Virus record (IMG/VR): IMGVR_UViG_3300030706_000110
Source: a virus
Reading direction: 5' to 3' (one strand)
Length of the DNA: 15,785 bases
Under the pieces are notes generated by a model. That model was given only the letters and a program-made list of their open reading frames with translations. It had not been told where the DNA came from and did not search any database. Below are positions 724 to 6,061 of the stretch, in pieces. Position numbers and translations under genes: made by a program. Positions within the stretch are counted from its first letter, which is position 1; each line of letters starts with the position of its first letter.

Positions 724-897
724 TCATGACGCCATCTCCGGGGGAAGCGCCTCTCTCCGGTCGAGGAGCGCGCGGATCGACCGCGAGTCCGCGTGGAGCG
801 CGTCGTCGCTGCACGTACAGTCGGGGTGGTGCTCGTTCTCGCGGAAGAACCGGAGCAGATCCTCGAAGAGTTCGGCGTCGAGCTGCGATTTCGTCAT
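724..897 (-). CDS. Unlisted small ORF, 57 aa (MTKSQLDAELFEDLLRFFRENEHHPDCTCSDDALHADSRSIRALLDRREALPPEMAS)
   Basis: Not in the track because it is under 60 aa. Its ATG forms an ATGA overlap with the stop of the SET gene (894..896). An AGAGGG RBS sits 5 nt upstream. Third codon positions are GC-rich. The stop is TGA at 726..724. Confidence 0.55.
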   Translation of the reverse strand: MTKSQLDAELFEDLLRFFRENEHHPDCTCSDDALHADSRSIRALLDRREALPPEMAS

Positions 898-1913
898 ACT
901 GCCCTCTTATAAACGTAGTCCGGCAACATGTTCCTGGATCTGTAATTAGCGACGAGTTGGGAATCAAGATACTGGCACCCGCTGATGACTTTCCTGCACG
1001 AGGCTGACCCGCACGTGCAGTCCATCCGCCACGTCTCGTGGTCGTCGGTGGAGGTCGTCGAGTAGTCGAAGCATAGCTCGGTGCCCGAGGAGACAGCGCT
1101 GAGCGTGAAGAGCGTCGCTCTGTTATTGTCCTCGATCCTCACCGCGCAGTTGGGCTCGCAGCTATGGTTCAAGTAGTCGTCCACGTCGCCCGAGGCGCCA
1201 ACGAACGCATTCAGCCCGATTTGTAGAACGTCGTCGCCCGCATCCAAGGCTTGCTGACCGGAAAGCAAGGGTCCCTTGATCTCGAGCACGTCCCTGCCGG
1301 CGGGGATGTCCTCCACAGCAAAAACCCCGCGCCCGTGCCTGCACTCTCGGACTTTGAGCTTCACGATTGATGATTCTACGTACCACTCGACGACGAACTC
1401 CGGCGCGCCCGGACCGCGCCAGAGCCGGAGCGCGAGCGCGACGTCGAAGTCCGACGGCCAGCGATCGTGACGCCACACCGTCCCGGCGAAGATCGGACAG
1501 GGCGTGTGGTCATTCATGTAGATCTGGACGACATGCATCCCGAGGTCGACCTCGTCGCACTTGAAGACCTTGCAGCGCACGATCTTGTTGACCATCGGCC
1601 CGGAGAGTCCCCAGGCCTCCGGGCGACAGATCTCGTCCTGAGCTTTCCCGAGGTCTTCCTCGTCCTCGCCCAACGCGAAGCTATAATGAAGCTCGCCGTC
1701 CGGCTCAAGCTCGCCGAGGGCGCGGGTCCGCGCGAGCTGGTCCTCGGAGATCGGGAACCACTTGTCGCCCGAACCCTTCACGTCGTCCGCGCTCTTCCGG
1801 ATGTAGACACCACAACTTGCGCACCGAAGGTCGGGGTTCTTGAGAATTCCGATGCTACAGATTGCTTCCCGAAGCTTGCGGGCACAGCCGTCGCAGATGA
1901 GCCGCCACGTCAT
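894..1913 (-). CDS. SET-domain protein (lysine methyltransferase-like) with an N-terminal CxxC...CxxC zinc ribbon and a ~190-aa unknown N-terminal region
   Basis: SET signature motifs were read directly: RGVFAVEDIPAGRDVLEIKG, NHSCEPNCAV, GTELCFDYS and a post-SET CTCGSASC. The N-terminus has CDGC...CASC. The start is an ATGA overlap with the upstream gene. Confidence 0.88.
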   Translation of the reverse strand: MTWRLICDGCARKLREAICSIGILKNPDLRCASCGVYIRKSADDVKGSGDKWFPISEDQLARTRALGELEPDGELHYSFALGEDEEDLGKAQDEICRPEAWGLSGPMVNKIVRCKVFKCDEVDLGMHVVQIYMNDHTPCPIFAGTVWRHDRWPSDFDVALALRLWRGPGAPEFVVEWYVESSIVKLKVRECRHGRGVFAVEDIPAGRDVLEIKGPLLSGQQALDAGDDVLQIGLNAFVGASGDVDDYLNHSCEPNCAVRIEDNNRATLFTLSAVSSGTELCFDYSTTSTDDHETWRMDCTCGSASCRKVISGCQYLDSQLVANYRSRNMLPDYVYKRAV

Positions 1914-2098
1914 CGCGCCGTCTCCAATCGTTGCACGGCTCGCGGGAAAGGTAACGCGAGCTGGGGATCCGCCTGAGAGAGCAGCCGCTCGAATTCTCTC
2001 CGCTTCGCGGCGATCTCCTCTTCGATCTGAAAGATCCTCCGCGCGATCCGGAGCATGCGCTCCGTGCGCGTGCGCTGCGGGTAGCGTTTGGTGCTCAC
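1910..2098 (-). CDS. Small basic/helical protein, about 62 aa (track ORF extends to a TTG at 2104)
   Basis: The track ORF is 1910..2104. The in-frame GTG at 2098 makes a GTGA overlap with the stop of the upstream gene (2095..2097). Its own stop overlaps the SET start as ATGA. Confidence 0.55.
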   Translation of the reverse strand: MSTKRYPQRTRTERMLRIARRIFQIEEEIAAKRREFERLLSQADPQLALPFPRAVQRLETAR

Positions 2099-2397
2099 GG
2101 CCAATCGTCCCGCTCGTCGGGCACGAGGAAGTCCCCTTCGCTGATTTCCGGGATCGCGGCCGTCCAGCTCCGAGACGCCAGCAGGATCAACCGGCCCTCG
2201 CCGTCCGAGAACCCCGTAACGAGAGCGCGGCCGACCCGCGGCAGGCGCCTGAGGTCCGGCGTCGCGCGCACGACGCGGGGCAAGATGCCGAGAAGCGTGT
2301 GATCGCCGCGCCCGCTCATCTGCAGCGAGCTATTGTTGATGGAGTGCACCTTGCCGAAATCTTGCCGCGTCGTCACTTCTCCACTCCCTCGAGCCAC
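2095..2397 (-). CDS. Hypothetical protein, 100 aa (GTG start)
   Basis: Track ORF. GAGAG lies 6 nt upstream of the GTG. It overlaps the upstream gene by 25 nt. Confidence 0.55.
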   Translation of the reverse strand: MARGSGEVTTRQDFGKVHSINNSSLQMSGRGDHTLLGILPRVVRATPDLRRLPRVGRALVTGFSDGEGRLILLASRSWTAAIPEISEGDFLVPDERDDWP

Positions 2398-2660
2398 TCG
2401 CTCTCTTGTTTCGCGACGAAGTCTTTACCGCAGCGCGTCTCGGCGATCACGTAATCAGCCTTGGGATTCCCTGGGACGGGCTCGACGCTCACCGGATTAC
2501 CCTGGTTCCAGTCCTCGAACGTCTTCGACCTGTAGTACATGTCCGGGTCAAGATCGTCGCCACGCTCCTCGAGCACGACGTGGATCTCTTCCACGCTCTC
2601 GGCCTCCACCGTGAGCGTGACGGATTTGTGCAGCCGCATCTCGACCTTGAACGTCGGCAT
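2373..2660 (-). CDS. Hypothetical acidic protein, 95 aa
   Basis: Track ORF. TGATG 1-nt overlap with the upstream gene. The composition looks globular. Confidence 0.7.
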   Translation of the reverse strand: MPTFKVEMRLHKSVTLTVEAESVEEIHVVLEERGDDLDPDMYYRSKTFEDWNQGNPVSVEPVPGNPKADYVIAETRCGKDFVAKQESEWLEGVEK

Positions 2661-2848
2661 CAGCGCTCGCCCCTCTCGCGCAACTCTTCTCGCGTGTAAA
2701 AGACGCCCGGAGCAATCTCCACTTCCTGCTTGGCCCGCTCGGCTTCACGACGCTTCACCAGCTCGCTCGCCATGAGCCGCACGTCCTTCATGCTCGCCAG
2801 GCCCGGCGCCTCGCTGATCTTCTTGAGCCACGACAAAGACACACCCAT
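2660..2848 (-). CDS. Hypothetical small protein, 62 aa
   Basis: Track ORF. A perfect AGGAGG lies 7 nt upstream of the ATG, immediately after the upstream TGA. Confidence 0.75.
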   Translation of the reverse strand: MGVSLSWLKKISEAPGLASMKDVRLMASELVKRREAERAKQEVEIAPGVFYTREELRERGER

Positions 2849-2860
2849 CCCACGCCTCCT

Positions 2861-3046
2861 TCAGTCGTCGTCCCACCCAGCACTGGACGAGATCAGCGAC
2901 TCGCGCTCGCTGCCTAGCCACTCGATGTGGTTCCGTATCCGTTTCGCCTCGCTCGCGCTGAGGGTCACGCCCTCGTTTTTCTCCACGGCCTTCTTCAATT
3001 TCTTGAACGCCTTCATGTCCGCGTTGATGTCGTCCATGATGGTCAT
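2861..3046 (-). CDS. Hypothetical small helical protein, 61 aa
   Basis: Track ORF. ATGA overlap with the upstream gene. Confidence 0.65.
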   Translation of the reverse strand: MTIMDDINADMKAFKKLKKAVEKNEGVTLSASEAKRIRNHIEWLGSERESLISSSAGWDDD

Positions 3047-3276
3047 GAGATCGCTTTCGCTTCCTCGTTCGTCAACTCGACCCTCACGGTCAGTGTCAGC
3101 ACGTTGTTTTTGCGATCAAGCTCGTAAGGACCTGGAGAATCGTACGCCACTCGTCCAATCAGGTTCCACGCTTCCATCATGGCGAGCGCATTCGCTGCGT
3201 TCTCCTTCATGCGCCGGCGAACTCTTGCGCGCAACGCGTCAGCTCCGTCCTCGAATAATCCTGGTCGTGCTTTCAT
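3043..3276 (-). CDS. Hypothetical protein, about 77 aa, beginning MKARPGLFED
   Basis: The track ORF is 3043..3378. The in-frame ATG at 3276 makes an ATGA overlap with the upstream stop at 3273..3275. The longer form would overlap the upstream gene by about 100 nt. Confidence 0.6.
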   Translation of the reverse strand: MKARPGLFEDGADALRARVRRRMKENAANALAMMEAWNLIGRVAYDSPGPYELDRKNNVLTLTVRVELTNEEAKAIS

Positions 3277-4715: not shown

Positions 4716-5272
4716 CTCTTCGCATCCCTCATGAGCGGAAGCGCGTGCGACACGATTTCGGTTCGCTCCTCAACGAGCCTACAACAGAGGATCTTGGGTC
4801 GATGATCCCACCGCTTGATCGGCGGAAGGGCCGCGAACTTCTCCGATCGCTCGATGAGGACGAGCAGCTCTTGGTCCGTGGGCTTGCGATCAAGGAAGAT
4901 CGCGACCGAGTTGTACGCGGCGTGCTTGGGTTTTGCACCGGGCTTGAGCTTCGTCACGTTGCCCCGACCATCGTTCGAGTAGCCGGGCGTCGGCGCGAGC
5001 GCCATCGGCGCGCGACAGATCGCGTCGTCGCCGTGATCGTCGACGCGCGTCGTGACGAGGTCCTCGAAGGGATCCTCTTCACCGGAATTGCCGTGGATGC
5101 GGAAATCCTCCTCGTACATCGCCTTGTACAAGCCGCCGCGATGGTCGCCGTGCTCATCGCACCGGCCGACGACGAAGCTCGAAAGCTCGCGCTCGAAGTT
5201 CCCCGCGTACGAGTCCGTGTCGACGACGAACGACCATCGCGGCCCAGGACTGTCCCATGACCAGAGCGCCAT
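4712..5272 (-). CDS. Hypothetical protein, 186 aa
   Basis: Track ORF, co-oriented and tightly spaced. Confidence 0.75.
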   Translation of the reverse strand: MALWSWDSPGPRWSFVVDTDSYAGNFERELSSFVVGRCDEHGDHRGGLYKAMYEEDFRIHGNSGEEDPFEDLVTTRVDDHGDDAICRAPMALAPTPGYSNDGRGNVTKLKPGAKPKHAAYNSVAIFLDRKPTDQELLVLIERSEKFAALPPIKRWDHRPKILCCRLVEERTEIVSHALPLMRDAKR

Positions 5273-5863: not shown

Positions 5864-6060
5864 GCTTCCTCGTCAGCGTGCTCGTGTTCATTCACAAGCT
5901 GGGCCATTGCCATCCCCTCACGCTTCGCACGCTCAGCTTCGTGACGCTTGCGCGTCTGCCGATCCATGAGCGTGACCGCCACCCACATCGCCGCGACGAC
6001 CACGACGGTGAAAATGACGATCACGCCCCAGACCACATCGGAGACGGTGACGATGAACAT
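5860..6060 (-). CDS. Small single-pass membrane protein, 66 aa (N-terminal TM helix VVWGVIVIFTVVVVAAMWVAVTLM, charged C-terminal tail)
   Basis: Track ORF. The hydrophobic segment was read directly. The start lies 1 nt after the MVP stop. ATGA overlap with the next gene. Confidence 0.7.
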   Translation of the reverse strand: MFIVTVSDVVWGVIVIFTVVVVAAMWVAVTLMDRQTRKRHEAERAKREGMAMAQLVNEHEHADEEA

Positions 6061-6061
6061 G

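Follow-up and report, generated by a model that had tools for sequence, protein, structure and literature searches.

A SET-domain protein joined to an N-terminal zinc-ribbon unit in a phage-like gene array, very probably created by deletion between neighbouring genes

The window analysed here is the whole 15,785-nt stretch of the IMG/VR virus record IMGVR_UViG_3300030706_000110. On its minus strand it encodes a 339-residue protein in which a SET domain follows an N-terminal unit of 178 residues (residues 1-178, hereafter the N-half) that opens with a putative zinc ribbon. The protein is very probably a real SET methyltransferase that was created as a fusion by a deletion between neighbouring genes. 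The combination of a C4 ribbon, an alpha/beta domain and a SET domain was found nowhere else among the homologues recovered. The fuller proposal is that the window encodes, within a phage gene array, an active S-adenosylmethionine (SAM)-dependent lysine methyltransferase that arose by deletion fusion and is tethered through its N-half; this is given a slightly better than even chance. That the N-half targets the enzyme is put forward tentatively, at rather less than an even chance. Throughout, relative loci or contigs are numbered with the prefix L and relative proteins with the prefix P.

Results

The fused gene

An earlier reading of the DNA letters (the original prediction) had placed a SET protein with an N-terminal zinc ribbon at 894..1913. 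This was confirmed, and every motif quoted in that prediction was located in the 339-residue product (Table 1). The open reading frame (ORF), on the minus strand, comprises 339 codons and a stop codon, with the ATG start at 1911-1913 and the TGA at 894-896. At the 5' end the ATG overlaps the stop codon of an upstream gene of 64 amino acids (aa) as ATGA, with a GGAG sequence 8 nt upstream of the ATG, and at the 3' end the TGA shares bases with the start codon (ATG) of the next gene, of 57 aa. Translation of the fused gene is coupled to that of its neighbours. Long plus-strand ORFs across 894..1913 were also considered and found no support; such opposite-strand ORFs are expected in DNA of 62% G+C.

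The identical 339-aa protein was called on 21 contigs, and the DNA of the fused gene is the same in the window and in eight further loci, each from a different sample. Locus L020, a ninth, differs by one base, which results in the change V174I. The fused (L019) and unfused (L011) forms are both present in sample 3300009522. Since independent assemblies agree, the fusion is not a chimera, and the identical gene in these assemblies rules out an assembly error.

Origin of the fusion

The homologues of the N-half are all encoded by separate genes of 168-197 aa, which end a few residues past an EWY motif; one of these unfused homologues, P0142, is 91% identical to the N-half of the window. For the SET half (residues 184-339), the profile search recovered a standalone 159-aa SET protein, P0052 from L011, which is 74% identical. 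The gene order in L011 is the N-half gene (82% identical, its product ending ...EWYAASPPESEKEDT before the stop codon), a 96-aa gene, the standalone SET gene and the next gene. In L003 the N-half gene is followed by a homologous 94-aa gene and then by the same next gene as in L011, without a SET gene.

At the junction, the window reads GAG TGG TAC / GTA GAA TCA TCA ATC / GTG AAG CTC AAA GTC CGA GAG TGC. The first three codons match GAG TGG TAC in the L011 N-half, and the DNA from GTG184 onwards resembles the start of the L011 SET gene (ATG AGG CTC GAG ATC CGA GCG TGC). The blastn match between the window and L029 stops at window position 1379. The unfused N-halves of several lineages carry a homologous short tail (e.g. 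AASPPESEKEDT) followed by a stop codon; the window lacks this tail as well as the entire 96-aa gene, and the 15 nt of the junction match neither part. The homologous tails across the unfused lineages, together with the intervening gene common to L003 and L011, indicate that the separate state is ancestral and the fusion derived. A fused ancestral state from which L011 arose by insertion was considered and rejected, on the basis of the common C-terminal tail and the common 94/96-aa gene.

The ratio of nonsynonymous to synonymous divergence (dN/dS) is 0.28 for the SET half (window versus L011) and 0.11-0.21 for the N-half versus its unfused relatives, which indicates that both halves are under purifying selection. 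The synonymous divergence (dS) is similar in the two halves, 0.55 for SET and 0.48-0.50 for the N-half, which fits co-inheritance from one ancestor. The fusion is lineage-specific but, given the dS to the unfused relatives, cannot be called very recent.

It is quite unlikely that the SET half is still translated separately from GTG184, with the fusion protein as a minor by-product. The GTG does lie exactly at the position of the ATG of the L011 SET gene, a start that also has no obvious Shine-Dalgarno sequence and relies on ATGA coupling. In the window, however, there is no stop codon upstream of GTG184 for termination-reinitiation coupling, the preceding 15 nt contain none of the Shine-Dalgarno motifs GGAG, GAGG and AGGA, and the 339-aa product was called on all 21 contigs. 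The protein is presumably produced as one polypeptide.

The SET half

The SET half matches the Pfam SET family (PF00856) with an E-value of 1.4e-15 over residues 194-284 and profile positions 1-104 of 105; the score is 58 bits, where the cut-off is 22.4. In a phmmer search of the PDB the best match was the SET and post-SET region of MLL1/KMT2A (E 7.6e-12, residues 189-310). Competence was assessed in an alignment of the window SET half with 49 homologues (50 members), in which 16 columns are invariant. The window keeps all 16, namely G214, Q231, D246, N249, H250, S251, C252, P254, N255, E279, D283, Y284, C299, C301, C306 and R307.

The individual motifs are also conserved. Motif I (G194-R-G196) aligns to HGRGLF of MLL1, with the two glycines present in 49/50 and 46/50 members, while in motif III (N249-H-S-C-E-P-N255), which is assigned to cofactor binding and the pseudoknot, every residue except the Glu is the same in all 50. 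In motif IV (E279-L-C-F282-D-Y284) the E, D and Y are invariant and F282, at the Phe/Tyr switch, is Phe in 47/50. In SET enzymes the cofactor is bound by NHxCxPN and GxG, and ELxF/YDY ends in the conserved tyrosine of the active site, two positions after the Phe/Tyr switch (PMC3585878). The Phe282 at the switch position predicts a capacity for multiple methylation, and C252 together with C299, C301 and C306 is presumed to form a zinc site. The cofactor and catalytic motifs are thus intact, as the original prediction had read them, and the catalytic Tyr284, the Asn and the cofactor residues whose loss it had named as the mark of a pseudo-SET are present. Scans of the window SET protein against NCBIfam and PADLOC gave nothing.

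Based on sequence comparisons, the SET half is of the ordinary prokaryotic short SET kind. In blastp searches it aligned end to end, including the tail, with standalone bacterial SET proteins of 160-170 aa at 33-41% identity and at most 95 bits; against 162-aa proteins, residues 11-154 of the 156-aa SET half were covered at 35-41% identity. These proteins, annotated by NCBI as 'SET domain-containing protein-lysine N-methyltransferase' and ~160-190 aa in length, share with the window the invariant residues, the switch Phe, the CxCx4C motif and the C-terminal tail (e.g. P0068, P0079 and the L030 gene). They are single-domain proteins in cellular genomes, whereas the window SET is in a phage-like element and has the 178-aa N-terminal unit attached. 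The window protein (339 aa) accordingly falls outside the single-domain form of 160-190 aa, within which P0052 (159 aa) was counted.

The original prediction had described the protein as eukaryote-like and SET enzymes as rare in bacteria, and neither description held. The match of the window protein to MLL1 was ~48 bits (phmmer, PDB) as against ~95 bits to the bacterial short SETs, and an import of a eukaryote-like SET was rejected on these scores. The SET profile search gave 5,396 clusters at E<=1e-5 among the 8,000 candidates scored, and a scan of species genomes (one genome per species) gave at least 581 confirmed SET relatives in bacteria and archaea of many phyla. Those listed include Spirochaetia, Gemmatimonadota, Acidimicrobiia, Proteobacteria, Acidobacteriota, CPR bacteria and DPANN archaea, among others. 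The best cellular match among those listed (41%) is a standalone gene adjoining an aminotransferase gene in a Spirochaetia metagenome-assembled genome (L030).

The best matches among solved structures are the eukaryotic MLL/SET1, SETD2, NSD and EHMT SET domains, and the alignment to them takes in motifs I, III and IV as well as the post-SET region. They differ from the window in the weaker match (48 versus 95 bits) and in a motif II Tyr that is not conserved in the window. Unlike these enzymes, the window SET has no pre-SET/AWS region and no complex partners.

Searches by tblastn of 50,697 deposited phage genomes, with the whole protein and with the SET half as queries, gave no significant match. 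Among the SET proteins examined on phage-like contigs, the most similar after P0052 is P0005, a 197-aa protein (L004 832-1425 / L005 836-1429) with 37% identity and 80 bits; several bacterial SETs score higher. In the phage sub-family made up of the window, P0052 and P0005, two inserted residues precede the post-SET cysteines. The N-terminus of P0005 has its own Cys-rich segment (CxxC...CxxC...CxxCGGTG), an independent architecture of zinc module plus SET, a hint that phage SETs may repeatedly be directed by zinc modules.

The N-terminal half

The region without SET similarity covers residues 1-178, close to the ~190 aa of the original prediction. When 1.84 billion representative proteins were searched exhaustively with a profile, 15 relatives of the N-half were recovered at E<=1e-3, and these split the region into two modules, A and B. 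The zinc ribbon that had been predicted lies in module A, and every homologue with this module retains C7, C10, C31 and C34. Module A alone exists as proteins of 66-69 aa (P0127, P0130 and P0131), and module B also exists alone, as proteins of 100-110 aa. The N-half matches no Pfam family, and NCBIfam, PHROG and PADLOC also gave nothing. No relatives of the N-half were found in the scan of 185,579 species genomes or in the scan of IMG/VR. The N-half is not a typical SET partner, as had been suggested, the fusion being confined to the window lineage among all of the homologues recovered.

An AlphaFold model of the N-half, built on 32 sequences, has a predicted local distance difference test score (pLDDT) of 88 and a predicted template modelling score (pTM) of 0.81, and consists of the ribbon, a helix and an alpha-beta3-alpha-beta domain. 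The elements of module B are a helix (86-96), three strands (111-118, 126-133 and 141-148), a second helix (155-166) and a final strand (172-177). A Foldseek search with the model found nothing at E<=1e-3 in the PDB or among viral models. The best structural neighbours of module B are HicB-like proteins, all weaker than E 1e-3; HicB-like and partial RNase H-like domains resemble it in the beta-beta-beta-alpha-beta core.

TFIIB-type and DksA/TraR-type C4 ribbons share the CxxC-x20-CxxC pattern with module A. A TFIIB-type assignment was considered and not adopted, as the matches were all sub-threshold: the family profile of the N-half gave E 0.17-0.9 against the TFIIB ribbon in the PDB, and Pfam Zn_Ribbon_TF (PF08271) matched 1/32 family members at E 0.063. 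The label TFIIB/Brf1 given by JGI to P0150 presumably stems from the same weak ribbon similarity. The N-half appears, from its sequence and model, to be a generic C4 zinc ribbon followed by an alpha/beta domain that matches no known fold.

Homologues of module B are repeatedly fused to, or adjoin, Cys-rich modules (P0133, P0138, P0140 and, in L024, the gene at 6334-6645 that follows P0136). The recurrence of this pairing suggests that the ribbon-plus-B combination is functional. L024 is a 40.5 kb phage-like contig with a single array, in which a module-B-only protein (6001-6333) is directly followed by the Cys-rich 103-aa protein (6334-6645). The same array encodes a 118-aa SET of an unrelated lineage without a post-SET region (2484-2840) and a 1,485-aa protein with a RadC domain (6689-11146). 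As a second case of SET with module B this contig was considered too weak, the minimal SET being unrelated and 3 kb from the module B gene.

Table 1 Features of the fused gene, with positions in the window.
Feature	Residues	Position	Strand	Basis
Complete fused gene	1-339	894..1913	-	ORF list; ATGA overlaps with neighbours; identical protein on 21 metagenome contigs
Module A: putative C4 zinc ribbon C7, C10, C31, C34 (CxxC-x20-CxxC), then WFP..E.QL helix start	1-66	1716..1913	-	Cys invariant in homologues
CDGC	7-10	1884-1895	-	Motif located in translation
CASC	31-34	1812-1823	-	Motif located in translation
Module B: predicted alpha/beta domain	71-178	1380..1703	-	AQDxIC, AGTVWRxDRWP and WRGxxAPxF motifs conserved
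Fusion junction, 15 nt (GTAGAATCATCAATC); linker VESSI	179-183	1365..1379	-	DNA reading; homology to unfused N-halves ends at Tyr178
GTG codon (Val184) at ATG position of L011 SET gene	184	1362..1364	-	DNA alignment with L011
SET half; equivalent of a complete prokaryotic short SET protein	184-339	897..1364	-	74% identity to P0052; 33-41% to bacterial SETs
Pfam SET match (motifs I, III, IV)	194-284	1062..1334	-	Pfam PF00856; motif definitions per PMC3585878
GRGVF	194-198	1320-1334	-	Motif located in translation
NHSCEPN	249-255	1149-1169	-	Motif located in translation
ELCFDY	279-284	1062-1079	-	Motif located in translation
Post-SET cysteines C299-x-C301-x4-C306	299-306	996..1019	-	Invariant 50/50; align to MLL1 post-SET region
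CTCGSASC	299-306	996-1019	-	Motif located in translation
C-terminal tail (RKVISGCQYLDSQLVANYRSRNMLPDYV...)	307-339	897..995	-	Matches SGxDWxxPEL..RY.GY.S.YL tail of prokaryotic short SETs (alignments)

The surrounding array

About 30 genes, most of them tiny, fill the window in a single long array on the minus strand, and their starts and stops overlap. The window is syntenic with ENA contigs of 264-279 kb (ERZ25039558 contig_131924 and ERZ25039562 contig_48334), which have the same organisation and share with it several small genes, a PadR-like gene and an MVP-like gene (83% identical). L029, L001/L002, L003, L011 and the window each have a different set of genes immediately downstream of the N-half gene; this region is an indel hot spot, in which SET is one accessory cassette. 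From 0 to 8 small genes are inserted after the N-half in the region of the window at ~300-1380 and in its equivalents in L001, L003, L011 and L029, and the homology breaks exactly at the last conserved residue of the N-half.

The MVP-like gene (6062-8674, minus strand) encodes 870 aa with matches to Pfam MVP_shoulder (E 1.5e-29) and Vault_3. Five IMG/VR viral contigs (L006-L010) carry relatives with 40-44% identity. A 2023 preprint (bioRxiv 10.1101/2023.11.10.566534) has described phage homologues of MVP; by comparison, the present elements are soil-type and much larger. The SET gene had been described as co-operonic with MVP, of which only a common one-strand array remains. The two genes are on the same strand, 4.1 kb and ~15 genes apart, with no terminator-like intergenic site between them on the minus strand, and co-transcription is possible. 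L001/L002 keep the MVP-like gene at 83% identity without a SET gene within the 20 kb read, and there is thus no specific link between SET and MVP.

Between the PadR-like and MVP-like genes lie genes for an RtcB RNA ligase (11419-12843), a phosphoribosyltransferase (10019-10816) and a 198-aa protein (10937-11533) with a SWIM-like CxC...CxH pattern read by eye and no Pfam match, all on the minus strand. All three are absent at the syntenic position in L001/L002, and L021 has a gene of a PHROG RNA-ligase family instead. The presence of RNA repair genes beside a vault-like protein is possibly worth attention. Two minus-strand genes of 101 aa (8918-9223) and 98 aa (9726-10022) both match one L001/L002 gene at 44-48% identity, which suggests a small pair that has duplicated and diverged. 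The PadR-family regulator (13541-13963, minus strand), one of the few recognisable regulators in the array, is syntenic in L001/L002 with 69% identity. An upstream extension in L110 adds 7.5 kb of one-strand small ORFs, with no virion genes there, and includes genes for a 556-aa AAA ATPase (1572-3242) and a DUF3846 protein (4853-5173). Most of the neighbouring genes had no match in Pfam, NCBIfam, PHROG or PADLOC, and the tRNA and Rfam scans of the window gave nothing.

Discussion

The sequence of events proposed here starts from an ancestor in which the N-half gene, the 96-aa gene and the SET gene would have been separate. A deletion would then have removed the N-half tail, the 96-aa gene and the start context of SET, joining the reading frames through a linker of five residues, and with no ribosome-binding site at the old SET start a single polypeptide would be made. 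The N-half would bring its own binding partner, either nucleic acid or protein, and the SET half would methylate one or more lysines on that partner, or on something held nearby, during infection. The enzyme activity, the tethering and the timing during infection are what we infer from the comparisons above.

Several observations weigh against this proposal, and they bear on the enzyme, on the tether and on the phage in turn. Motif II of SET enzymes is the tyrosine of YxG (Tyr245 of SET7/9, Tyr967 of Set1) (PMC3585878). In the window this tyrosine has no counterpart, with Asp228 at the aligned position, and given this change the catalytic detail may differ from that of the eukaryotic SETs. The phage sub-family further deviates at the near-invariant positions K213, A257, T278 and G233. 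The AlphaFold check suggested in the original prediction succeeded in part: the N-half gave a confident model (pLDDT 88) with no known fold, while the full-length model, made from a single sequence, reached only pLDDT 34.6 and is unusable.

The missing motif II tyrosine (D228) and the changes at K213, A257 and T278 are what might be expected of an inactive or repurposed SET that serves as a binding module only. Such a pseudo-SET is very improbable. All of the family-invariant residues are kept, including NHSCxPN, Tyr284 and the post-SET cysteines, and the dN/dS is 0.28. The motif II position is D, E or H across the whole prokaryotic short-SET family, accompanied by the invariant Gln231 three residues on, and Asp228 is therefore a trait of the family and not a sign of decay in the window lineage.

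With respect to the tether, all fused copies are clonal and belong to one near-clonal population, with no independent recurrence of the fusion, and among these clonal copies no selection signal specific to the post-fusion period was found. SET adjoins the N-half in only one other lineage (L011) of the ~8 with usable flanks, and the N-half clearly works without SET. The fusion may thus have been a neutral accident, an in-frame deletion in an indel hot spot after which the halves keep unrelated jobs and the link has no targeting role. In keeping with this, the gene content after the N-half differs in every relative, SET is absent near the N-half in most lineages, the fused copies are near-clonal and the linker is merely five residues. 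Against it, both halves are under purifying selection along the branches to their unfused relatives, in L011 the SET gene already lay close to the N-half gene, and combinations of zinc ribbon with SET and of zinc ribbon with module B recur elsewhere. A neutral fusion is regarded as possible but rather unlikely.

The element is probably a jumbo phage. In ~23 kb of the element that were read, no capsid, terminase or other virion hallmark was found, and the 20 kb read of L001/L002 likewise contained no virion or packaging hallmark genes. A non-viral element, such as a large plasmid, a giant extrachromosomal element or a chromosomal island, would also lack virion and packaging genes in the window and its readable flanks, and would fit the finding that relatives of the N-half are not in IMG/VR; the SET enzyme would then act on the proteins of the cell, for example nucleoid-associated ones. 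This is considered unlikely. The 264-279 kb relatives consist of tightly packed one-strand ORFs, mostly of 60-200 aa and without Pfam matches. Several neighbours fall into PHROG families (RtcB, the phosphoribosyltransferase, a 186-aa protein and some flank genes), relatives of the MVP-like protein are on IMG/VR viral contigs, and the N-half is absent from the 185,579 species genomes.

If the protein is indeed an active phage methyltransferase, known systems offer some guidance as to its target. The SET protein cpnSET of Chlamydia pneumoniae methylates Hc1, and Go1-SET of Methanosarcina mazei methylates MC1-alpha (PMC3980110). These are SET lysine methyltransferases outside the eukaryotes that act on the organism's own DNA-binding proteins and, by analogy with them, a DNA- or transcription-associated protein is the leading guess for the substrate. 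The pathogen effectors NUE, RomA/LegAS4 and BaSET have eukaryotic histones as their targets and are equipped with secretion signals, ankyrin repeats or nuclear localisation signals, whereas nothing in the window SET suggests a eukaryotic target. No specific sequence relationship to the window was shown for cpnSET, Go1-SET, NUE, RomA/LegAS4 or BaSET; P0068, as distinct from the window protein, gave a far sub-threshold NCBIfam match to AnkI/LegAS4. The vSET protein of PBCV-1, whose target is histone H3 of the host, is a minimal SET that lacks the post-SET region. It resembles the window SET in being encoded by a small accessory SET methyltransferase gene of a virus, as does the annotated SET ORF62 of Stenotrophomonas phage Ps15 (PMC9025141). 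No described substrate for phage SET enzymes was found in the literature searched. In a 'Rosetta stone' reading of the fusion, the N-half would serve a phage lysine methyltransferase as its targeting subunit, or would dock it on a host machine, for example RNA polymerase or a nucleoid protein; this specific form of the proposal is improbable, though worth stating for what would follow from it.

The fused protein is not a new kind of enzyme or mechanism, and leaves knowledge of SET action unchanged. The fusion ties one short prokaryotic SET to a defined partner module, in a very large family that is almost entirely uncharacterised, and the fused and unfused close relatives are a natural paired experiment for the target of a phage SET. 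It possibly provides a first function for a rare and unannotated phage protein family, that of the N-half, and is an example of gene fusion by deletion within an indel hot spot of a phage, one metagenome containing both the 'before' and the 'after' state. If the Rosetta-stone reading were true, these jumbo phages would methylate protein lysines in order to reprogramme a particular complex of the host or the phage, or to protect it, a SET-based host takeover not yet described for bacteriophages.

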